A program made the translations under genes and the position numbers. Source: a plasmid. Taken from it: a DNA stretch of 64,000 bases. How positions within the stretch are numbered: the stretch's first letter is position 1; each line of letters starts with the position of its first letter. Below the pieces are notes generated by a model. It had not been told where the DNA came from and ran no database searches. It saw nothing but the letters and a program-made list of their open reading frames with translations. This document shows, in pieces, positions 28,136 through 64,000 of this stretch. The DNA lies in sequence record NZ_CP137560.1; one strand, given 5' to 3'.

Positions 28136-29254
28136 TTATTCTTCCTCCATTTTATTTTCTATTTCTTCTATCTGTGGCAAAGCCGAAGCGACATCAGCAA
28201 AGAGTTTTTCTGTTTCGTATTGTGCAATGCCCATTGGTTGAGTAATGCCACGAAGCGAGAACTCTGCTTTCTTGTTGCTCTTAGTACGGCAGAGAAGCAA
28301 GCCAATGGTAGGCTTGTCTTCAGGTGACTTTACCATGTCGTCAACAGCAGAAATATAGAAGTTCAGTTTGCTAACGAACTCAGGTTTGAACTCCACGGCT
28401 TTTAACTCCACAACAACATAGCAATGCAGTTTGAGATGGTACATCAGCAAGTCGATATAGTAGTCATCACCATCTACCGAAATGTGGTATTGCCTGCCAA
28501 TGTATGCAAAGCCACGTCCCATTTCAAGGAGAAAGTCTGTAATCTTGCTTGTCAATGTTTTCTCAATGTCAAGCTCATTTTGGAGTGCCACTGTACCCAA
28601 AAAACTAAAATTGTATGGGTCTTTAAAAATATACTTCGCCAAATCGGACTGAAGAGGTGGCAAGGTTTGCTCAAAGTTATTGATTGCATGCCCTTTAGCA
28701 TGGATATATCCATTTGCTATCTGCATAAGCATCACATCACGACTCCACCCATTCTGCGCAGTTTCTGTAATGTAATAAGCTCGTTCGGCAATGTCTTTTA
28801 CTTTCGATAGAAGCGAAATGTGATGATACCAAGTAATTTGTGCAAGTGGAACTTGCACAAAGCCTTTGTCATCTTCTTTAAATTGGTCAAGTACCACTTG
28901 ACCAATTGGAATATTTTCCATTTTTGCAAGCGGCACTTGCAAAAATGGAAAATCTGGATACGCTTCAGCGAAACGTCTCATACTTTTGAGATTACTCAAA
29001 GAGTATCCTCTATCATTAGGGAACTTTTGGGATAAATCAACAGATAATTTTGATATGATATTTGCTCCCCAGCCTAATTGTCTCTGCTGTGCTAAAATTC
29101 GTTTGCCCAAAGTCCAATATAACGCCAATGTGTCAGCATTGACATTAATTGCGGTACGTAGTTTTGCTACCTCTATAAGATGCTCTATGTCTTTGCGCCA
29201 TTCTGCATAACCATCAGGCAGCAAATCGGTATTTGCGTTAATAATTTCATTCAT
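28136..29254 (-). CDS. DUF1016 (YhcG-like) PD-(D/E)xK nuclease-fold protein
   Basis: N-terminal LYWTLGKRILAQQRQLGWGANIISKLSVDLSQKFPNDRGYSLSNLKSMRRF (DUF1016_N pattern). C-terminal D...HCYVVVELK is a PD-(D/E)xK motif. Confidence 0.65.
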   Translation of the reverse strand: MNEIINANTDLLPDGYAEWRKDIEHLIEVAKLRTAINVNADTLALYWTLGKRILAQQRQLGWGANIISKLSVDLSQKFPNDRGYSLSNLKSMRRFAEAYPDFPFLQVPLAKMENIPIGQVVLDQFKEDDKGFVQVPLAQITWYHHISLLSKVKDIAERAYYITETAQNGWSRDVMLMQIANGYIHAKGHAINNFEQTLPPLQSDLAKYIFKDPYNFSFLGTVALQNELDIEKTLTSKITDFLLEMGRGFAYIGRQYHISVDGDDYYIDLLMYHLKLHCYVVVELKAVEFKPEFVSKLNFYISAVDDMVKSPEDKPTIGLLLCRTKSNKKAEFSLRGITQPMGIAQYETEKLFADVASALPQIEEIENKMEEE

Positions 29255-29258
29255 GCCT

Positions 29259-29459
29259 TTATTCCTTTCCTACATTTCTATTAAAGCTAAGACTTCCGAG
29301 TTGCTTCATTATCTCATCTTCCAAACGATGACTTTCAGCGAATTGTTGTGCAAGCGTAGTTCTATAATCATTCATTCGCTTACTTTCAGCCACCATTTCC
29401 CCATGGTTGTTTGGCTTTTTTACCTCCACGAAGCAAAGAGGTAAACCATTGACAAACAA
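29259..29459 (-). pseudogene. N-terminal fragment of a type I (or III) restriction enzyme R subunit
   Basis: VNGLPLCFVEVKKP matches the conserved HsdR/Res N-terminal VNGLPLvviElKkp motif. Only 66 aa remain. Confidence 0.5.
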
Positions 29460-29676
29460 AGTGATGTCTGGGCGGAATTCATCTTGACCATTCTTGCAAG
29501 TGAACTCAGCCGTAAAATGAAAAATGTTGGTTTAAATCTTTCATAACATTCAATTTGTTGCTTTAAATGCAAATATAGTGATTTCTTTTTATAAATATAT
29601 GTCAACAGATTAATCTTTAACAAGATATAACAAAGAAAGGATAGCCCGTGAAAGGGCTATCGATCTACACCATTTA

Positions 29677-30720
29677 TTATTTCACATCCGGATATATCGC
29701 AACTTTAATGACTCCATCCTTTCTGTTTTCAAAGATATCGTAGGCTTCTTCGATTTTTGAAAGAGGGAAACGGTGGGTAATGAGAGGAGTGGTGTCTATC
29801 CTGCCCTGAGATATCAGATGCAGGATTTCCTCGCAGTCGCAACCATCTACACCGCCTGTCTTGAAGATGAGATTTTTGCCATACATATCTGGGAGAGGTA
29901 AGAGCTGAGGTTTATCGTACATCGCCACAATGGTAACTATCGCATTAGGACGGGCACATTGCCATGCCAACTGGAAAGTATCAGGACCGCCTGCTACCTC
30001 CATCACCACATCCGCACCACCGTGCAAACTCTGTTCCTTGACAAAAGCCTCGCAATCCTCTGGTTCTACCACCAAAACCTGCGGATAATGCTCCTTGATA
30101 AAAGCTCTTCTGGCTTCTGACTTCTCGCAAACGATGATTTTCTGCGGATTCTTCAACAACGTGCAAAGCAAACAGCACACTCCCGTAGGTCCTGCTCCGA
30201 TAATCAAAACTGTATCTTCTTCCTTGATTTCAGAAATCCTTGTTGCCCAGAAACCCGTGGCAAGAATATCTCCAACAAAGAGTGCCTGCTCATCACTTAC
30301 ATTGTCAGGAATCCTATTTAAGCCCGTAGTGGCATAAGGAACCCTTACATATTCGGTCTGCCCGCCATCAATACGACAGCCCAAAGCCCAACCGCCATGA
30401 GGAGAAGTACAGTTGTTCACATATCCATGTTGGCAGTAGAAGCATTCCCCGCAGTATGTTTCCACATTCACGGTTACTCTATCGCCTGGTTTCACATGGG
30501 TAACCTTCTCCCCTACTTCTTCTACGATACCCACCATTTCATGTCCCACAGTAATTCCGGGAATGGCACGAGGAACAGAACCGTGCTTGATATGCAGGTC
30601 GCTGGTACAGATACTGCTCATGGTAACTCTCACGATGGCATCGTGTTCATCTATCAGGATTGGTTTCTCCTTTTCGGTGAACCCAAATACACCTTGTTTT
30701 AATATATGTAAATGCTTTCA
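29677..30720 (-). pseudogene. Zn-dependent alcohol dehydrogenase (MDR family), copy 1, N-terminally frameshifted
   Basis: ~98% nt identity to copy 2 over ~1.05 kb. A 1-nt insertion in an A-run (attaaaacaagg vs attaaacaagg) truncates the reading frame from the ATG at 30720 after 24 codons. The in-frame remainder starts only at GTG 30633. Confidence 0.6.
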
Positions 30721-30740
30721 TTATGACTGTAAGTTGATAA
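29685..30740. repeat. direct repeat copy 1 (~1.05 kb, ~98% identical to 34672-35725)
   Basis: Collinear near-identity to copy 2, with a handful of SNPs and one 1-nt indel. Confidence 0.7.
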
Positions 30741-30880
30741 TTGTTTTTATCTTTGTTTATCGGACTATTTTTCTTTTTGTTATCTGGCCGTTTTGTCAGA
30801 TTGTCGAAATATTCATTTCTATTTTTTTGCGGAAATATACAAAAAATATTCGGAACCAAGTATCAAACGTTTACCCAAAA
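30718..30880 (-). promoter_or_regulatory. promoter/5' leader block (copy B)
   Basis: attcatttctatttttttgcggaaatatacaaaaaatattcgg is homologous to copies A and C. Confidence 0.45.
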
Positions 30881-31008
30881 GCAACATGCTCAATCGTTTG
30901 CACAAAAAAAAACAGATAAATGGCTGATATTCAGGATAACGACTTTAAATTTTAGATAACTTTGCAACCGAAAAAGATGAATAATAAACAATTTAAAGAT
31001 TATAAAAG

Positions 31009-34000
31009 ATGATAAAAATTAATGATTCCAAACATTTAAAAGCACTACTAGCGATATGCTTCCTGCTTTTACTCCCTTTACAACTTTTTGCAAAGGATAT
31101 CACGGTTTATTTCCGTGATGTAAATAATGAAAAACTTTCCTTGTACATCTGGTGGTACGGTGATAATAATAAAGAAGAACATCCAGTTGGAGATTGGGAT
31201 GCGGCATACAATCACCACTATGATACCAAAACAATAGGTGGTAAAGAATGGAAATACTGCACCGTTACCATTGATGACAATAAGACAATGAATGTAATTA
31301 TCCGAAAGGAAGGAGTAGCTCAAGGAAAAACACAAACTGTTGATATCACTGGTATAGACAAGGATACGTATTTGGAAACAAATGGTCATTTTCCAACTCC
31401 ATGGTCCGGAACCTATGTACAGCAGCTGGAAGATAGTAAGACTGAAGATAGGCATAAAGAAATCATGATTTTCAACGAACTGACTCGCTCTGAAGCAGAA
31501 GGCAAGACCATCAACTACGAGGTGCGCATGAAGGCAGGTAATACTACCAAGAAGTTCTATATGACCAATGTGAGAAATCAAGAACCAGGTATCCACTCTA
31601 TCAGTTCCAGTCTCTTTATGGTAGGTATCGCAGACAAGGATTTGCCAGGCGAAAACGGTAATCAAGTTGAATTCTATGTAGCAGGATCTGATGACGGACA
31701 GAAATATGACGATGGTACAACCATTACCAATGTATTCAGACCATGGGATAATAATTTTGATTTTACACAGCAGAAAGATCAAAATGGCAAGATTAAGCCC
31801 TATGCAGATTATTACAATTGCAAAAATGAAAGCGACAATACCAATACTTTCAAAATCACTAAAGGTTCAGGTGTGTCATATACCATTTGCCTGAATAACA
31901 GCAATTGGACAAAATCAGATTTTGAAACCAATAGTATAGGAGGAAATTCTAACCAATATAATACAAATAAACCAGTCGGTGATGACGATCATACTCGCTA
32001 TGGAATCCGTAGTGTCAATGTTTATACCAACAAGGGTTTGACAGAAGATACAAAAGGCTATACGCTGATAGGTAACTTCTTGAAAACCAATGACCCTAAC
32101 ACGGATAACCAGGGCTTAGATATTGATGATAATTGGGCGCCTGATAATTCAGAGCGACAATACAAAATGGAAAGGGCAGAAAAGTTTGACAGTTCTGTAG
32201 GTGATCCTGGTGACATTGTCTATGAACGCATACTCAACAAGCCAGCCAACGAAAGCAATACTATGTTTTTTAATATCTGTCCTACCTCATTGCTGGAAGA
32301 AACAAGTAAAAATTGGGGAGGCTCTGAAAACTGGGATGGTACTGAAGCAAATAAAGACAAAATTATAAATGATAAGTGGAACTATATTATTCGCCCACAG
32401 ATACAGGCAGGAAAAGATGCCATCTCATTGCAAGGATGCGTAGAAATAACCCCGACCGACGTGTATAAAATCAAGAATGACAAAGGTGAGGAAATAGAAA
32501 CCTGCATCATGAACCGCAGCCAGGCATTCAATGCCAACATGGATGATAACAACTATTCTCAGTTCACTGTCTATCTCAATGTCACTAAATCTATGTACAC
32601 TATTGTTCCAATGGAATCCATCGACCTGATAGGAAATGCCGTCGGCATCATCAACCGTGGTACGGGAGAGTGGCAGCAGGGACAATGGGAAAACGGTGAG
32701 CGCCAGTATCATTATGTGAGAATGGCAAGAAATGCTAAGCTTGACAAGACAACTTACAAAGATACAGACAGCGAGCAGACCACAAAATGCTGGGAATATA
32801 CAGGTAAGTTCTATCACTATGATGTGGCAGGAGGTCGCGGCGGAGACAATGCAAGTAATGGTTTCCGATTCCTCACCAACCAGACTTATGTACGTAACTA
32901 TATAGAGGATGCTTATCGCCCAGAGCATTTCACGGAAGAACAAAAGACGAACAGTGATTATCAAGAGAAGCTGGCAGTCAACAACCCTTATTGGAATGAG
33001 GTAATGCTTGACCCTTACAATGGCACAGACATGAACAATCCTATCACCCCATATAATCCAACCGGAAGCCCGATCTATGGAAGTCTTGGCAATGAGCGTG
33101 ATGAAGGATTGCACATTGGTTTCGTACTGCCAGAGGATATTTATACCATGCGTTTCTGGCAGACTACCGACAAAGACGGTAAGGTTGTGAAGGCTTGGTA
33201 CACATTGGGCGAGAGCGTGACACCTCCTGATCCATTACCAGCAAACACGGAAGTATATGATAACTTGAACTGTATCCGCACATTCAGTTCATCTGTGGCT
33301 TATCAGAAACCAGAAAAGATGAAAGTCTTCATCGTGGACCAATATAAAAATGGTCAGGCACACCTGAAGGAAATCAATTACATTCCTGCCAATACAGGAG
33401 TAATCTTAGCTTACAACAAAGCTGATGCTAAATATATGAAGAAGGATTCTGCGAACTTGGTATTTGTAGGCGATGCAGATAAAGAAGACCAACAGTATAT
33501 CTTCGAGAAATTCCCTTCCATCAACTTTGTGGAGAAGCAGAATGCAGGCGAGGATATCGGTCAGAACTATCTGATGCCATCAGTTGCTTCGAAAGAAGTA
33601 AAAACAACAGAATACAAAGAAGAAAACACGAAGGAAATTGCTTATCGCAACTATATGTTTACCGCCTACAAGAAGAAGGGTAAAGAAAATTACACCTTAT
33701 GTTTCAAGCGTGTGATCACAGGTAAGACATCGAAGAATAGTGCTTATCTCCGCTTGCCAGCAGATTTGTGTGGTGGCACAAAGGTAACAACCAACGATGA
33801 GAAGATTATCGGATCGTCAGCCCAGTTCCCTGAATATACTCCAAGTGCCAGCAAGGAGTGTTTCGCCAGCATCTTATGGGGAGATACTGAAGCTACAGGC
33901 ATCCAAAATGTGAATACAAATAATGCCACAACAACTTCTACAGTGGCTGACATTTATTTCACTCTTCAGGGTGTAAAGATTAATAAGCCATCAGCTCCTG

Positions 34001-34041
34001 GCATTTATATTAAGAATGGCAAGAAAGTAATGGTTAGATAA
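31009..34041 (+). CDS. large Asn/Asp/Lys/Thr-rich secreted protein with T9SS C-terminal sorting domain; function unknown
   Basis: Signal peptide MIKINDSKHLKALLAICFLLLLPLQLFA. C-terminal ...IYFTLQGVKINKPSAPGIYIKNGKKVMVR is a T9SS CTD. Own TAACTTTG -7 box at ~30952. Confidence 0.6.
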   Translation: MIKINDSKHLKALLAICFLLLLPLQLFAKDITVYFRDVNNEKLSLYIWWYGDNNKEEHPVGDWDAAYNHHYDTKTIGGKEWKYCTVTIDDNKTMNVIIRKEGVAQGKTQTVDITGIDKDTYLETNGHFPTPWSGTYVQQLEDSKTEDRHKEIMIFNELTRSEAEGKTINYEVRMKAGNTTKKFYMTNVRNQEPGIHSISSSLFMVGIADKDLPGENGNQVEFYVAGSDDGQKYDDGTTITNVFRPWDNNFDFTQQKDQNGKIKPYADYYNCKNESDNTNTFKITKGSGVSYTICLNNSNWTKSDFETNSIGGNSNQYNTNKPVGDDDHTRYGIRSVNVYTNKGLTEDTKGYTLIGNFLKTNDPNTDNQGLDIDDNWAPDNSERQYKMERAEKFDSSVGDPGDIVYERILNKPANESNTMFFNICPTSLLEETSKNWGGSENWDGTEANKDKIINDKWNYIIRPQIQAGKDAISLQGCVEITPTDVYKIKNDKGEEIETCIMNRSQAFNANMDDNNYSQFTVYLNVTKSMYTIVPMESIDLIGNAVGIINRGTGEWQQGQWENGERQYHYVRMARNAKLDKTTYKDTDSEQTTKCWEYTGKFYHYDVAGGRGGDNASNGFRFLTNQTYVRNYIEDAYRPEHFTEEQKTNSDYQEKLAVNNPYWNEVMLDPYNGTDMNNPITPYNPTGSPIYGSLGNERDEGLHIGFVLPEDIYTMRFWQTTDKDGKVVKAWYTLGESVTPPDPLPANTEVYDNLNCIRTFSSSVAYQKPEKMKVFIVDQYKNGQAHLKEINYIPANTGVILAYNKADAKYMKKDSANLVFVGDADKEDQQYIFEKFPSINFVEKQNAGEDIGQNYLMPSVASKEVKTTEYKEENTKEIAYRNYMFTAYKKKGKENYTLCFKRVITGKTSKNSAYLRLPADLCGGTKVTTNDEKIIGSSAQFPEYTPSASKECFASILWGDTEATGIQNVNTNNATTTSTVADIYFTLQGVKINKPSAPGIYIKNGKKVMVR

Positions 34042-34506
34042 AAAATCAAATATAAAGAAATTATGAGAAAAATATATCAGATGCCGAAGGTTAGAATCAT
34101 CACCCTACCGACCATAGAAAATTTAATGGCCGGTTCTAATGAACCGGGTGTCGTTTCTTCTGAGCAAGGTAAAGGAGAAACCACAGGCGGGGATAGTTAT
34201 ATCGTCTTAGGTAAGCAATACAATGCTTGGAAAACATGGGATGAAGAAGAATGAAAAAGTACTTTGCTTTTTTACTCGCAGCCATAAGCATGATGCCTGT
34301 AGCTGCTAAGAAACAACCCCAACCGATGGGCGTATGATGCCATCGTATATTGGAATGCTTCACCTGAATATCTCGCCCAATGCCAGCCTTCGCTGCGACG
34401 TACTCCACTTTGATGCGAATGGAGCACTGGAGTTGGGCAACAAGATGTTCCAATTCATAGAGAAAAAGAAATTTTAGAAACCATAAGCAATTGCTTATCA
34501 TATTAA

Positions 34507-34543
34507 AAAAGGTTTCGTTCCGTAGTATGGAACGAAACCTTTT
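34507..34543. terminator. hairpin terminator
   Basis: AAAAGGTTTCGTTCC gtagtat GGAACGAAACCTTTT, a perfect 15-bp stem. Confidence 0.5.
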
Positions 34544-34662
34544 ATTAGTTATAAATACATTTACCTATATAAGATACTTATTCTATAGCTTATCTTTTGT
34601 AATAATCATAGAGGAAAGCGTCAAGAAGAGTCCATGACGAAGAGTCTCTTCTTCCCTTTTTT

Positions 34663-35706
34663 TTATTTCTCATCCGGATATATCGCAACTTTAATAACTC
34701 CATCTTTTCTGTTTTCAAAGATATCGTAGGCTTCTTCGATTTTTGAAAGAGGGAAACGGTGGGTGATGAGAGGAGTGGTGTCTATCCTGCCCTGAGATAT
34801 CAGATGCAGGATTTCCTCGCAGTCGCAACCATCTACACCACCAGTCTTGAAGATGAGATTTTTGCCATACATATCTGGGAGAGGTAAGAGCTGAGGTTTA
34901 TCGTACATCGCCACAATGGTAACTATCGCATTAGGACGGGCACATTGCCATGCCAACTGGAAAGTATCAGGACCGCCTGCTACCTCCATCACCACATCCG
35001 CACCACCGTGCAAACTCTGTTCCTTGACAAAAGCCTCGCAATCCTCTGGTTCTACCACCAAAACCTGCGGATAATGCTCCTTGATAAAAGCTCTTCTGGC
35101 TTCTGACTTCTCGCAAACGATGATTTTCTGCGGATTCTTCAACAACGTGCAAAGCAAACAGCACACTCCCGTAGGTCCTGCTCCGATAATCAAAACTGTA
35201 TCTTCTTCCTTGATTTCAGAAATCCTTGTTGCCCAGAAACCTGTGGCAAGGATATCACCAACAAAGAGTGCCTGCTCATCACTTACATTGTCAGGAATCC
35301 TGTTTAAGCCCGTGGTGGCATAAGGAACCCTTACATATTCGGTCTGCCCGCCATCGATACGACAGCCCAAAGCCCAACCGCCATGAGGAGAAGTACAATT
35401 GTTCACATATCCATGTTGGCAGTAGAAGCATTCCCCGCAGTATGTTTCCACATTCACAGTTACTCTATCGCCCGGTTTCACATGAGTTACTTTCTCCCCT
35501 ACTTCATCTACGACACCCACCATTTCATGTCCCACAGTAATTCCGGGAACGGCACGAGGAACAGAACCATGCTTGATATGCAGATCGCTGGTACAGATAC
35601 TGCTCATGGTTACTCTCACGATGGCATCGTGTTCATCTATCAGGATAGGTTTCTCCTTTTCGGTGAAGCCAAATACACCTTGTTTAATATAAGTAAATGC
35701 TTTCAT
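34663..35706 (-). CDS. Zn-dependent alcohol dehydrogenase (MDR family; threonine/sorbitol dehydrogenase-like), copy 2, intact
   Basis: 347 aa. Catalytic Zn ligands (CTSDLH), structural Zn site ETYCGECFYCQHGYVNNC, and NAD-binding IIGAGPTG. Confidence 0.8.
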   Translation of the reverse strand: MKAFTYIKQGVFGFTEKEKPILIDEHDAIVRVTMSSICTSDLHIKHGSVPRAVPGITVGHEMVGVVDEVGEKVTHVKPGDRVTVNVETYCGECFYCQHGYVNNCTSPHGGWALGCRIDGGQTEYVRVPYATTGLNRIPDNVSDEQALFVGDILATGFWATRISEIKEEDTVLIIGAGPTGVCCLLCTLLKNPQKIIVCEKSEARRAFIKEHYPQVLVVEPEDCEAFVKEQSLHGGADVVMEVAGGPDTFQLAWQCARPNAIVTIVAMYDKPQLLPLPDMYGKNLIFKTGGVDGCDCEEILHLISQGRIDTTPLITHRFPLSKIEEAYDIFENRKDGVIKVAIYPDEK

Positions 35707-35725
35707 TATGATGATAAGTTGAAAA
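34672..35725. repeat. direct repeat copy 2
   Basis: See copy 1. Confidence 0.7.
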
Positions 35726-35830
35726 TTGTCAAAATCTGATTGTCCTGTGAAGTGATAGAAACATTCATTTCAATTTTGTGCAAATATACAAAAAATATTC
35801 GTAATTGGCTCATTTTGGACAAAATTCCAT
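35704..35830 (-). promoter_or_regulatory. promoter/5' leader block (copy C)
   Basis: Reverse strand TTTTTTGTATATTTGCACAAAATTG (TAnnTTTG). Homologous to copies A and B. Confidence 0.45.
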
Positions 35831-36028
35831 GATAAAGAATTTTAAAACTGCAGATTTTCTGCTCATAAAAGCCGAATTTTTATCCTTAGATGAAAATGAT
35901 GCACAGTACAGACTGGCGAAAGAAGATAAAAAGAAATTATGGAAACGATAAGTGATTGTTTATCATACCTAAAAAGAAAGTTCCGCTCCGAAGTACGGAG
36001 CAAAACTTTCTCTTAGTTATGAATATCT

Positions 36029-37216
36029 TTAATTTCCATCTGGTTTGGTAACATCCAGGTCTGTGGATGGATACCAAAGGAACTTGTTGAAGTCGTCAGG
36101 CTGGGCTGGATTGAAATCCTGCCAGTCTGGACGGAGATATTTCAGGAATGGCAGATGGAGCTGCTTCATTCCCATCACCACCATCTTGGCCACCTCATAG
36201 GCTCCGTATGGATTGAAGTGGGTATTATCCTCTAATGCCTTCGGCTGATTAGGATAAGTGTTGGCTGGATAGTGAACCAGCGATTTCTTACTGTTCTCAT
36301 AGCCCAATGTCTCGAAGAAAGTACGGGTCATATCATGCAGTTCGATGACAGGCACACCCTCTCTTTTGGCCACAGCTCTCATGGCATCAGGATAATCGCC
36401 ATGCGTTTCCTGTATTTTGCTGCGGGTAGCTTTGTCAAAGAAACGGCGCTGGGTAGGAGTCACAAAGATGATGTTTCCACCCTTAGCGCGTACCTTATCT
36501 ATATACTGCTTCAGATTGTAGGAGAAATTATACCAGGCTCCACTTCCTGGAGTCTTCTCTTTCTGGTCGTTGTGTCCGAACTCACAAATCACATAGTCAC
36601 CCTTCTTCATCATGGCCAATACTTTCTCCAGACGGTTGGAAGCTAAGAAGGATCCGGCTGTCAATCCGCTCTCTGCATGATTGGAAATAGCTACTTCCGG
36701 ACCAAACCAGCGTGGAATCATCTGCCCCCAACTGGCGTATGGTTCATGAGCCTGATCCACTACGGTTGAGTTACCACAGAGGAAGATGGTTGTGGCAGTC
36801 GTGTCACGCTCTATCTTCACCTGTTTTACAGCAGGAGCAGCACCATAGAAGTCAAGAGTCAACTTGTCATCCCAGTCAGGTGTGCCCTTCTCACGAGGTT
36901 TGATACGTACGTTCATCTTATCAGAAATCTTTGGTGAACGCTTGTTGACGATAAACTGGACAGTCTGGAATTTACCCTTCTTGGTAGAGATTTCATCCAC
37001 CATGAGTCTTCTGGCTTCAGCACGCACCACCGTCTTGGCAGCCTTTTTCTTGGAGCCGAGGACAACCGTCACCTTGTAGTTGCCATCAGGCACTTCCACT
37101 GCGTAACTTTTAGGATTTTGCTTACTCAGATCTACATCGAAAGTCTGGGCTTTCACATTTGCGGACATCGCCAGCATCATCATACCAGCGAGTAGCCATT
37201 TCGTTTGTTTCTTCAT
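36029..37216 (-). CDS. rhamnogalacturonan acetylesterase (CE12, SGNH hydrolase), secreted
   Basis: Signal peptide. FLCGNSTV (GDS(L)-type nucleophile block), GHNDQ block II, 395 aa. Confidence 0.7.
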   Translation of the reverse strand: MKKQTKWLLAGMMMLAMSANVKAQTFDVDLSKQNPKSYAVEVPDGNYKVTVVLGSKKKAAKTVVRAEARRLMVDEISTKKGKFQTVQFIVNKRSPKISDKMNVRIKPREKGTPDWDDKLTLDFYGAAPAVKQVKIERDTTATTIFLCGNSTVVDQAHEPYASWGQMIPRWFGPEVAISNHAESGLTAGSFLASNRLEKVLAMMKKGDYVICEFGHNDQKEKTPGSGAWYNFSYNLKQYIDKVRAKGGNIIFVTPTQRRFFDKATRSKIQETHGDYPDAMRAVAKREGVPVIELHDMTRTFFETLGYENSKKSLVHYPANTYPNQPKALEDNTHFNPYGAYEVAKMVVMGMKQLHLPFLKYLRPDWQDFNPAQPDDFNKFLWYPSTDLDVTKPDGN

Positions 37217-37319
37217 TATATGTTTTAGTTATTTGTTAATTTGGCTACAAAAATACAATATCTTTTTCAAAAACATTAGTTTTTCCGTTCATTTTTTGAT
37301 TATATAGTACAAAAAGCAA

Positions 37320-37352
37320 TTGAGGGTGTGTCATGAATTTATGGCGCACCCT
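37320..37352. repeat. 31-bp palindromic element copy 1 (GAGGGTGTGTCATGAATTTATGGCGCACCCT)
   Basis: Identical 31-mer recurs at 47531-47564. Arms GAGGGTG/CACCCTC, followed by a T-run. Confidence 0.55.
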
Positions 37353-37675
37353 TTTTTTTATTTTACCAGGTTCTCACTATCACAAACCTGACAAGAATAA
37401 GACTTTAGGCATGCTGACACAATAATAAATCAATCTTTTTGAAAAGCACAAAACAAGTATTAAACGAATATAGCATAAAGAAATTAATTGGTTATCAAAC
37501 CAAATTTAAAAGTAAGAAATCTATTTTTTTAAGCTTATCTCCGTTTAATTCTGTAGAATATTACCTCATTTATGGTAAAATATTCATTAAATATATATTT
37601 AATTTCTAAAAAAGTGTTATCTTTGCAAAGAAATATAATATTAATACGAGAATACTCAATTTAGATTGTAACTTT

Positions 37676-40600
37676 ATGCAAATAAACAATTTAACTCCAT
37701 GCGCTTGCCGCTGGATTTTGCTGAGTTGTTGTCTTACCCCTCCATTCTTTCAGTCTGCATCCGCACAGAATGTAAATGGAGAAACAACTCCACAAACAGA
37801 GATCGCTGTGAAGCAAGGATTTGTTGAGGGTAAGGTGTTTGATGGCGGTGACCATGAACCGATGATTGGCGTTACCGTGGCCATCGAAGGTACTACTAAC
37901 GCTGTAACAACGGATATCGACGGACATTTCTCCTTGCCAGTCAACAAGGAATGCAACATCGTACTTTCTTTTATCGGTTATAAGAAAACAGTCATTCGAT
38001 ATACGGGTAACAACCAAGCCGACTTTGCCAAAATCATGTTGAAGTCGGAAGCTCAGAACATCAAAGACGTGGTGGTCACTGGTGTCTATCGCCGTAAGAA
38101 GGAGAGCTTCACCGGTTCTTCTGCTACTTTCAAGGGCGATGAACTCAAGAGCGTGGGTGCACAGAACGTGCTCCAGAGTTTGAAGACCCTCGACCCTTCT
38201 TTCAAAATCATGGATAATGCCCTCTCCGGTTCCAACCCTAACAAGATGCCGGATGTGGAAATCCGTGGTAAGTCGAGCGTGGCTGGTCTGAAAGAGGAAT
38301 ATGGTTCTGACCCTAATCAGCCTCTCTTTATCCTCGATGGTTTCGAGACAACTCTGGAAACCGTGATGAACCTCAATATGAACAGAGTAGCCTCAGTTAC
38401 TCTGCTCAAGGACGCTGCATCTACTGCCATCTATGGTTCCAAGGCTGCAAATGGCGTGGTAGTCATCGAGACCAAGGCGCCTGTTAAGGGTAAACTGCAG
38501 ATTTCCTACAAGGGAGACTACAGCATGGACTTTGCCGACCTCTCTGATTACAACCTGATGAACGCTCGTGAAAAATTGGAGTTTGAGAAATTAGCTGGTG
38601 TATATAAGGACAATACCAACGATCCTTTCAACCAGATTAAACTGGATAATCTCTACAATTCCCGTCTCCGCGACATCGAGCAGGGTGTGAATACCTATTG
38701 GCTCAGTGTGCCGCTGCGCACCGGTTTTACCCACAAGCACAATGTATATGCTGAGGGTGGAGAAGGTAACGTGAGATATGGTATTGGATTGAACTACGGA
38801 AAAGTGAACGGTGTGATGAAGGGTTCCGACCGACAGACTTTGGGCGGTAACCTCGACCTGATCTACCGTACAGGCAAGTTCCAGTTTAGCAACAAACTCT
38901 CCATCGACTATCTGGAGACCAACAATCCTACGGTAAGTTTCGCTGAATATGCCCAGGCTAACCCTTATTACAAGAAGTATGGGGAAAATGGAAAGATCAA
39001 CAAATATCTCTATTATCCGGAAGATGGATTGAACGACTATCCTGTATCAAACCCTCTCTGGAATGCCCATCTCAACAATTATGACAAGGGACAGCGCTTC
39101 GGCTTTACCAACAATTTCATCGCCGAGTGGTTTGCCACAGATGACCTCCGTGTGCGTGGCAAGTTTGGTATCACCAAGTATGATGATACCCAGGATCAGC
39201 GACTCTCTCCAGAGCATACAGACTTCGATGATAAGGAAGCAACCCAGAAGGGACTGTTCAAGCACAGCCTGCAGAAATATCTCTATTACGAGGGAGACCT
39301 TTCTGCAACTTATGGTAAACTGATAGCCGAAAAGCATCAGATTAACGCCGTTTTGGGATTCAACTTCAGCAATACCAGCAGCAAGACAAATGGCTATTCG
39401 GCTACAGGTTTTACGGACGACCAATTTGACGCTCCATCCTTTGCCAACAACTACCCTACTGGTGGCAAGCCAAGTTACCGTGAGAACATCAAGCATGCAT
39501 CCAGTTTCTATCTGAATGGCGGATATGCTTACGACAACCGCTATCTGCTGGATTTCAACCTGCGTAACGACGGCGCCTCTATGTTTGGCACCGACAACCG
39601 TTTCCGCACCACCTGGTCTGTGGGTCTGGGTTGGAATATCCACAATGAGAAGTGGATGCAGGAGAATGATATCTTCCAGATGCTGAAGCTGCGTGCCTCT
39701 GTGGGTAACCCAGGTAACCAGAACTTCTCGGCTTATCAGGCTTACACCACCTATATGTTCAACAGTCTGATGACTAACGTATTCGGTACCGGTGTCATCA
39801 TCAATGGCTTGGGTAATAACGACCTGGCTTGGCAGGAGACCATCAACTACAACATTGGAGCTGATATCACCACCTTAGGCAACCGTCTGAACCTGACGCT
39901 TGATTACTATATCAAGAATACAGACCCATTGCTCGCCATCATTACGACACCAGGTTCTATGGGCGTAACCAGCGAAGCTCTGAATGCCGGTAAGCAGAAA
40001 ACCAACGGTTGGGAAGCCACCATCAAGTTCTCTCCTATCTACATGCCACACGAGCGCATCAACTGGAACATCTCCGTGAGCGCCACTCATTCCAAGTCGA
40101 AGTATGCCAACATCGGCAATGCCTTCAGTGCTTTGAATGAGAGCGGAAAGACGGGTCTTCACAACACTACCCGCTATTACGACGGAGGAAGTCCTACCGC
40201 CATCTGGGCAGTGCGTTCTGCGGGCATCGATCCAGCCACAGGTAAGGAGCTCTTCATCAAGCGCGACGGAACCTATTCGTTCACCTATGATGCCAACGAC
40301 GAGGTGGTATGCGGTGATACCGAACCGGATGTAGAGGGTCTGTTGGGAACCACCTTCTATTATAAGGGATTCTCATTCAGCTGCTACTTCCGCTATCAGT
40401 ATGGCGGCCAGCTCTTCAACAGTTCGCTCTTCGACAAGGTGGAGAACATCGGAACAGCTGATGTATATAACAACCAGGACCGCCGTGCCCTCTACGACCG
40501 CTGGAGCATCAACAACCGCAATGCACAGTTCAAGGGCATCTCTATGGTGCAGAAGACCGACAAGTCATCCCGCTTCGTGATGGATGAGAACACCCTCACC

Positions 40601-47490: not shown

Positions 47491-47530
47491 TTTCGTTGTT
47501 ACATACGAAAACAAATAAAAAATTTAAGGA

Positions 47531-47564
47531 GGGTGTGTCATGAATTTATGGCGCACCCTCCTCT
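47531..47564. repeat. 31-bp palindromic element copy 2
   Basis: AGGAGGGTGTGTCATGAATTTATGGCGCACCCTCCT, lying between two convergent genes. Confidence 0.55.
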
Positions 47565-63507: not shown

Positions 63508-63648
63508 GAAGAAGCGCTTCTTTGCAACTTAAAGAAGCGCTTTATTAACACTTAACGAAGCGCATCATGAGACCTTAATAAAGCGCATCATTAAACCCTA
63601 ACGAAGCGCATCGTTAGACCTTATAAATGCGCATCGTTAGATTTGATA
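63508..63648. repeat. tandem array of six degenerate 23-bp units, each with a palindromic core GA(A/T)GCGC(A/T)TC
   Basis: Cores at 63511, 63534, 63557, 63580, 63603 and 63626, an exact 23-nt period. Unit 1 contains the perfect palindrome GAAGCGCTTC. Confidence 0.6.
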
Positions 63649-64000
63649 AATATACTTTCTTTGAGGAAATGCTTTCTCATCGGATAGTGTGTCAAGATTT
63701 ATGACTCTCCCTCATCCTCTTCTCCATGAAAGATGTTATTAGAAAGACTAACAAATATTTACTAAAAATCATATAAAACAATCTAATTTTCGAGAAATTA
63801 AGAGGAGTTTCGTATTATTTTCATTATATTTGCAACAAATTGAAATCAATGATGATTGTAATGACATTTGCAACAACAAAACATATATCAAATAAACTCC
63901 AAAGATGTAATGTTCCCCATTACATCCTTCATTGTAATCTTCGGAAATAATATCTATCTCATTTCAGATAACATATTATTAACGAATTAAAATTTACATG

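Follow-up and report, generated by a model that had tools for sequence, protein, structure and literature searches.

A directly repeated Zn-dependent alcohol dehydrogenase gene pair in a Segatella hominis-like bacterium: concerted evolution, pseudogenisation and copy-number polymorphism

Introduction

In plasmid record NZ_CP137560.1, the full 64,000-nucleotide (nt) stretch analysed here (the window) contains two direct repeats of about 1 kb, each made of a Zn-dependent alcohol dehydrogenase (ADH) gene, on either side of the gene of a 1010-amino-acid (aa) protein. Copy 1 of the ADH gene is a pseudogene in the window and copy 2 is intact. Among related strains, the central parts of the two copies evolve in concert, copy 1 is broken by different lesions in different lineages, and a single-copy allele carries a hybrid of both copies. 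Altogether, the locus most likely results from an old segmental duplication, followed by gene conversion between the copies, decay of copy 1 and deletion at the direct repeats. The host belongs to the S. copri complex and resembles Segatella hominis; its ADH and that of strain BCRC 81118 share 99% identity, and PMC10635906 gives the species context. Ongoing gene conversion, strain polymorphism (including copy 1 lesions other than the one in the window) and a third copy of the promoter all go beyond the original prediction, which was a reading of the letters of the window alone.

Structure of the repeats

Copy 1 (29664-30744) and copy 2 (34650-35729), both on the minus strand, are 96.9% identical over 1072 nt with a single indel (BLAST) and lie in direct orientation at an offset of 4986/4985 nt, each repeat consisting of a medium-chain Zn-dependent ADH gene together with its 23-nt proximal 5' untranslated region (5'UTR). 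The direct orientation had been recognised in the original prediction, and its figure of ~98% identity is to be lowered to about 97%. Over the coding sequence (CDS; 1044 nt), the copies differ by 27 substitutions (97.4% identity), 23 synonymous and 4 non-synonymous, besides the one indel, and these substitutions are unevenly placed: nt 1-465 hold 21 of them and nt 864-1044 the other 6, the stretch in between (nt 466-863) being free of any. Copy 2 (34663-35706, minus strand) is intact and encodes a predicted MDR-family Zn-dependent dehydrogenase of 347 aa. In copy 1 (29677-30721, minus strand), an A4 run at 30697-30700 (TTTT on the plus strand) holds one A more than the A3 run of copy 2 at 35683-35685, the gene strand reading ATTAAAACAAGG vs. 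ATTAAACAAGG; the frame is shifted at codon 9 and meets a TGA at codon 25 (30647-30649), with a predicted product of 24 aa, exactly the inactivation by a single inserted A that had been proposed.

Judging from their sequence, both repeats are genes of the MDR Zn-dependent alcohol dehydrogenase family, as also read originally. The GroES-like catalytic domain PF08240 (ADH_N) is matched at E=1.6e-25 by copy 2 and at 6.6e-24 by the copy 1 open reading frame (ORF), the Rossmann-fold cofactor domain PF00107 is borderline (31.7 bits for a cut-off of 31.8), the GxGxxG motif is present as IIGAGPTG at residues 174-181, and solved Zn-ADHs are matched over the full length (5yln at 2e-62, 4cpd at 1e-50). 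Candidate Zn-ligand residues are C38, H60 and E61, which we take by homology to be the catalytic ligands, as well as C90, C93, C96 and C104, presumably those of the structural Zn; the frame-restored copy 1 keeps all of them as well as the GxGxxG positions. No substrate could be assigned at the equivalog level, since the best NCBIfam matches (tdh, PRK10083 and IolM) all fall far under their cut-offs.

Homology between the copies extends into the ~110 nt promoter upstream of each, at 78-84% identity only, and this low identity of the non-coding parts argues for an old duplication. The promoter module of copy 1 (P1; 30745-30860, minus strand) has a 33-nt insertion compared with that of copy 2 (P2; 35735-35892, minus strand), and a third copy of the promoter, the 5'UTR and the start ATGAAAG, at 27479-27640, precedes a C10 peptidase gene. 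The -7 box follows TAnnTTTG in two of the three modules, among them P2 (TATATTTG at 35781-35788), and is the imperfect TATATTTC in P1. Taken with the 5'UTR, one and the same module is found at 27479-27640, 30722-30860 and 35707-35892, in front of the C10 peptidase, ADH copy 1 and ADH copy 2, respectively. P2 corresponds to an ATTT-flanked 158-nt presence/absence polymorphism, missing in L013, L016 and L020, such labels designating the sequences with which the window was compared. On the 3' side, each ADH copy of the window ends in its own hairpin and U-tract; the terminator downstream of copy 2 (U'; 34459-34563, minus strand) is 78% identical to the terminator hairpin (U; 35924-36031, minus strand) after the GDSL-family lipase/acylhydrolase gene, which is the conserved upstream neighbour (36029-37216, minus strand).

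Recurrence and lesions of copy 1

The comparison sequences are nearly all short-read metagenome contigs. Exact-protein look-ups recovered the order lipase, ADH copy 2, 63-aa ORF and 1010-aa gene (these two on the opposite strand), ADH copy 1 in over 20 contigs assembled from metagenomes and drawn from six or more studies, as well as in one NCBI metagenome-assembled genome (MAG); the sources are BOND22, STRA21, BRIT16, SHET22, ZHON19, ERZ15609922, ERZ1026882 and MAG GCA_037358495.1. The +A frameshift of copy 1 is common to the window, L001-L007, L013, L111 and L022, and occurs in every contig with the copy-1-specific 5' haplotype, including the diverged lineages L111, L013 and L022. Another lesion, the deletion of CDS nt 625-828 (204 nt) accompanied by a further 1-nt indel, affects copy 1 in L013, L016, L018 and L019. 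Copy 1 is intact in L015 and L020 only; in both it has a copy-2-like 5' end and stands directly upstream of the C10 peptidase gene, with which it probably shares an operon, the island that separates the two genes in the window being absent.

Gene conversion between the copies

The alignment of the two copies covered 12 genomes. Over CDS nt 351-1000, the divergence between the copies of one genome averages 0.57%, whereas comparisons between genomes give 1.7% for copy 2 and 2.35% for copy 1; half of the genomes (6/12) show no difference between their copies in this segment, and the copies have 51 polymorphic sites in common for 0 fixed differences. Outside it, in nt 1-350 and nt 1001-1045, the within-genome divergence is not below the between-genome one, and the first ~350 nt, the last ~45 nt and the promoter are copy-specific in many lineages. 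In L111, some 35 lineage-specific substitutions are found in both copies, and the two copies of the window keep 9 central differences. The alignments thus indicate that, in both copies, the central ~650 nt are under concerted evolution by ongoing gene conversion. Copy-specific ends would be expected because conversion tracts must begin and finish within homology, and conversion would likewise account for the substitution-free middle of the repeats of the window and for an old pseudogene that still appears selected, with 23 of its 27 differences synonymous.

Single-copy alleles

Strains with a single ADH copy, with which comparison had been advised in the original prediction, do exist, and the locus is polymorphic in several ways. 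In allele A (L109, L114, L115, L116 and L118), the order is lipase, P2, ADH, C10 peptidase with otherwise collinear flanks, window position 34650 being joined to 27520. Allele B is the two-copy arrangement as in the window. Alleles C and D also have a single ADH; in L117 it is followed downstream by an island of type I restriction-modification genes, and in L110 as well as in the type strain L021 a SusC/SusD/thioredoxin block lies upstream of it. The single-copy ADH combines a copy-2-like 5' part with a copy-1-type 3' end (GCAAC), nearly all copy-2 sequences ending in ATGTA, which is the hybrid that a crossover between the repeats predicts. In the region upstream of the gene, single-copy strains have an additional 63 nt at 35898/35899.

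A census of junctions found all four combinations of promoter and downstream sequence, the combination P1-ADH-spacer in one contig only (L022; UMGS1762 contig, 4025 nt). There, the 5' part of the 1010-aa gene is followed by P1, an ADH with a copy-1 5' end (with +A) and a copy-2-type 3' end, the spacer and the 3' part of the 1010-aa gene. Such a junction is of the type expected from an excised circle or from a tandem amplification, but the contig has a coverage of only ~5x, and a misassembly caused by the repeats would explain it equally well.

Two further two-copy contigs, L120 (3090-3375) and L122 (906-1348), have ADH copy 2 preceded by a promoter copy of the peptidase type, instead of lipase and P2, and also by a sequence 87-88% identical to window 24646-24780, just downstream of the C10 peptidase gene; this arrangement is a further rearrangement from the same modules.

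Outside the species, a 90-91%-identical ADH homologue occurs in S. copri HDD05 (L025, NZ_CP152353.1) and HDD04 (L034, NZ_CP152485.1) on records titled 'extrachromosomal', and relatives of 75-77% identity are present in bins assigned to Lachnospiraceae, Holdemanella and Blautia, a distribution that points to either horizontal spread or binning errors. None of the ADH loci examined in other species has the 1010-aa gene or a second ADH copy nearby.

The genes between the repeats

The 1010-aa ORF (31009-34041, plus strand) has in its N-terminal part the sequence MIKINDSKHLKALLAICFLLLLPLQLFAKD, which resembles a signal peptide. It has no family match in Pfam or NCBIfam, and its homologues form only 14 clusters, all devoid of Pfam domains or names. 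The original prediction had labelled the gene as cargo of the type IX secretion system (T9SS); this label is not supported, as neither Por_Secre_tail (PF18962) nor TIGR04183 is matched by the ORF at E<=1 (NCBIfam) or by its isolated C-terminal 61 aa at E<=10 (Pfam), the neighbouring C10 peptidase matching both models of the C-terminal domain (CTD) at 2e-7 and 4e-8 as a positive control. A conserved C-terminal motif (YFTLQGV..P..PGIYI..GKK.VV) is nonetheless reminiscent of a CTD, and export by the T9SS is possible on that account. An AlphaFold model built from 15 sequences is poor (mean pLDDT 48, confident at residues ~30-100 only), and Foldseek with this model against the PDB gave no match at E<=0.001. 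The only consistent weak matches, at E 0.01-0.04, are to the starch-binding carbohydrate-binding modules (CBMs) CBM41 and CBM25, attributed tentatively to the N-terminal beta-sandwich as the output does not state the aligned query positions. At 36-44%, the GC content of the gene compares with 41-47% in adjacent genes, a difference that is not decisive, and base composition was set aside as a sign of foreign origin.

A small ORF is the constant companion, on the 3' side, of the 1010-aa gene and of homologues with 62-81% identity to it (34063-34254 on the plus strand in the window, 63 aa; L101 13051-13242; L106 12998-13198). Its 63-66 aa display the conserved pattern MKK.YQ.P...AGS...GD.YI.LGK..NAW.TWDEEE and match no family.

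The segment 30972-34264 (plus strand) is 83% identical at the nt level to a 4-kb unit that carries an 81%-identical homologue of the 1010-aa protein in other contexts of a related organism. This unit of 4041 bp, which lies between inverted repeats of 71 nt, occurs with 100% identity in two or more genomic contexts; the window has only 30972-34264 in common with it. Besides, a non-coding element of ~150 nt just after an ATPase_2 gene (window 24281-24433) corresponds, at 84-89% identity, to the 71-nt inverted repeats around the mobile 4-kb unit with its 1009-aa gene (L101 9893-9963 and 13479-13549), and it is found again where a rearrangement ends in the type strain of S. hominis (L021 11926-12077); it could be an element akin to a miniature inverted-repeat transposable element, or a recombination site.

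Origin of the locus and rival explanations

The proposed course of events starts from a duplicated unit of roughly 1.25 kb, which comprises the promoter, the 5'UTR, the Zn-ADH gene and about 25 nt downstream, and whose two copies enclose about 3.9 kb with the gene of the putatively secreted 1010-aa protein and, likewise on the opposite strand, the 63-aa ORF. Non-reciprocal exchange would homogenise the central ~650 nt of the copies, and reciprocal exchange would remove, or in reverse insert, the 5-kb unit to yield single-copy alleles. Being redundant, copy 1 is decaying through different lesions according to the lineage, +A here and the 204-nt deletion with its 1-nt indel elsewhere, and the two strains with an intact copy 1 may either never have been hit or have been repaired by conversion from copy 2. 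Regarding direction, a midpoint-rooted neighbour-joining tree of the lipase gene has two-copy alleles on all deep branches and single-copy alleles nested among them, which favours deletion as the derived event and an older two-copy state. The deletion across the repeats that had been foreseen is borne out insofar as the repeats do act as recombination substrates, given the single hybrid ADH and the predicted junction; its RecA dependence would be a presumption.

Several points weigh against this account. The polarity relies on one flanking gene and a midpoint-rooted neighbour-joining tree in a recombining species. Within a 1-kb repeat, assemblers may pop bubbles or reuse a collapsed unitig and so inflate the central identity within genomes, a bias whose size is not quantifiable here, although the lineage-specific blocks present in both copies of L111 and L013 appear hard to produce by assembler homogenisation. 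Copy 1 may also give a 314-aa product from an internal ATG (M34). Finally, an in-situ tandem duplication followed by insertion into the linker, considered as the first step, was rejected: no linker homology supports it, local alignments of the lipase 3' end and the U-P linker with the flanks of the cassette being no better than those of shuffled sequences, and the similarity of the terminators U and U' is all that remains of it.

The same haplotypes can be read in the opposite direction, with a single-copy ancestor into whose resident ADH a circular DNA of 5 kb, with a diverged ADH, its own P1 and the 1010-aa and 63-aa genes, integrated by a Campbell-type single crossover; the repeats would then mark how the 1010-aa gene was acquired, as the original prediction considered possible. 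The chimeric haplotypes are as such an event would leave them, copy 2 having a resident-like 5' end and a distinct 3' end (ATGTA), and copy 1 a resident-like 3' end (GCAA-C/T) after a distinct promoter and a distinct first ~350 nt; the same pattern is equally well explained by a deletion in a two-copy ancestor, however. The mobility of the 1010-aa relatives (the 4041-bp unit in its two or more contexts, with 71-nt inverted repeats), the ADH homologues on the S. copri extrachromosomal elements (L025, L034) and the lack of the 1010-aa gene or of a second ADH copy at the ADH loci of other species would suit integration, as would the circle-type junction of L022, but this is a 4-kb contig of about 5x coverage and possibly a repeat-induced misjoin. 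Moreover, no donor context for P1-ADH came to light, the five P1 contigs of a metagenome scan all being two-copy loci, and the deep branches of the lipase tree are all two-copy with the single-copy alleles nested. Integration is unlikely, though more probable than the other rivals. Quite improbable too, and slightly more so, is a version in which the ADH-bounded 5-kb unit acts as a transposase-free cassette, looping out as a circle with one hybrid ADH and the 1010-aa and 63-aa genes, re-entering strains with a resident ADH by homologous recombination, and with copy 1 reversibly repaired by conversion from copy 2. If it were true, a large surface or secreted protein would be switched on and off across the population.

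A regulated switch, whether a phase-variable A-run or repeats that drive programmed on/off excision of the surface-protein gene, has very little probability. Presence and absence of the 1010-aa gene among strains and the one circle/tandem-type junction contig (L022) would fit it, yet contingency-locus tracts known to slip are far longer than A4 or A3, and the tract length is constant within each haplotype, which also disposes of the phase-variable tract suggested originally. Nor is there a recombinase, invertase or transposase gene in or adjoining the unit, or any inverted repeat of at least 30 nt within 27000-38500. As for the second ADH copy or the extra A being products of assembly or sequencing error, a possibility raised at the outset for both, repeats of 1 kb with about 97% identity and a homopolymer indel are classic sources of error; both copies are nevertheless found, with distinct flanks and copy-specific haplotypes, in over 20 contigs that stem from several studies and several assemblers, the +A follows the copy-1 5' haplotype in independent assemblies down to the diverged L111, L013 and L022, and the run is only 4 nt long. 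Error is thus the least probable of these explanations, close to negligible. Duplication with conversion, decay of copy 1 and deletion is the account retained here.

Relation to known systems

Classical examples of concerted evolution in bacteria are tufA/tufB in Salmonella and E. coli and the rRNA operons. As in these, paralogues within a genome are closer at the ADH locus than orthologues between strains, polymorphisms are common to both copies, and identical tracts have copy-specific ends. Unlike tufA/tufB, one ADH partner is a pseudogene in most lineages, the pair is accessory and strain-variable rather than essential and selected for dosage, and deletion competes with conversion because no more than 5 kb separate the directly repeated copies. 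PMC6053082 and PMC8022953 also deal with gene conversion and the concerted evolution of duplicated genes in bacteria.

The ADH locus resembles systems of deletion or integration at direct repeats by its 1-kb repeats around a dispensable segment and by its natural hybrid one-repeat alleles with the predicted junction; compared with them, it is known from sequences alone, and the natural direction may be either. Long direct repeats are substrates of RecA-dependent deletion, tandem amplification or Campbell-type integration. With composite transposons and IS26-type translocatable units, the locus has in common a cargo bracketed by direct repeats and, once (L022), a putative circle junction, but its repeats are a metabolic gene, and no transposase, terminal inverted repeats or target-site duplication were found. 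In Neisseria, pilE/pilS is a system of gene conversion from silent cassettes, and here too a defective copy exchanges sequence with another, presumably expressed one; unlike pilE/pilS, the ADH pair bears no sign of diversifying selection, given its mostly synonymous differences (23/27), counts two copies only, and encodes an oxidoreductase rather than a surface antigen.

The locus is so far undescribed, its behaviour is standard for long direct repeats in bacteria, and no new mechanism is involved. Its interest lies in being a natural, metagenome-visible example of all the outcomes of direct repeats, that is conversion tracts, lesions that inactivated copy 1 independently, a possible conversion-driven repair and a deletion allele. 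It also marks the region from lipase through ADH to C10 peptidase as a hot spot of recombination in the S. copri complex, where a putatively secreted protein of 1010 aa without family comes and goes among strains. On a practical note, short-read MAGs of this S. hominis-like species can collapse or misjoin at this locus, and the 314-aa 'ADH' gene calls made there are truncated pseudogene calls.

Neighbouring genes and minor observations

Beyond copy 1, the window has a variable island (27521-29669, minus strand) up to the C10 peptidase gene, with a DUF1016/YhcG nuclease gene at 28136-29254 and the third promoter copy at 27521-27640; the island is missing from L020 and from single-copy strains. 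The DUF1016/YhcG gene, which is deleted in L123, looks like what is left of a larger island, which in L117 (10620-17188) includes a helix-turn-helix gene and type I restriction-modification genes (HsdR, N6_Mtase). A 32-nt repeat (D5; 27418-27449 vs. 29632-29663) was considered as the target duplication of the DUF1016 island and rejected because L020 and the single-copy alleles place the island boundaries at 27520/29670, which leaves one arm outside the junction. The C10 (streptopain-like) cysteine peptidase itself (24825-27485, minus strand) has an Inhibitor_I69 propeptide and a T9SS type A CTD, and its gene lies directly downstream of an ADH in the single-copy as well as in the L015 and L020 alleles. 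A search of 24000-38000 for an RNA element in the common 5'UTR/promoter gave no credible Rfam match.

The far side of the lipase gene (37217-37675 and beyond) is also strain-variable, with two types of neighbours, as seen by comparing L001, L006, L007, L013, L015, L016, L018 and L019 with L002-L005: one, as in the window, is a SusC/SusD/DUF4843/PKD locus, and the other comprises an AraC regulator, a protein of ~830 aa without known function and a glycerate kinase. In this part of the window, a 42-nt repeat is present at two intergenic sites 10 kb apart (37311-37352 and 47518-47559) with 88% identity and an exact core of 31 nt (GGGTGTGTCATGAATTTATGGCGCACCCT), and is probably a common terminator-type element. 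Lastly, a 23-nt unit with a consensus of about AAGAAGCGCTTCATTAAAACTTA is repeated imperfectly in tandem, about 5-6 times, at 63509-63651; similar arrays adjoin the mobile unit with the 1009-aa gene in one of its contexts (L102/L105 9364-9495) and are also found downstream of the single ADH of L117.

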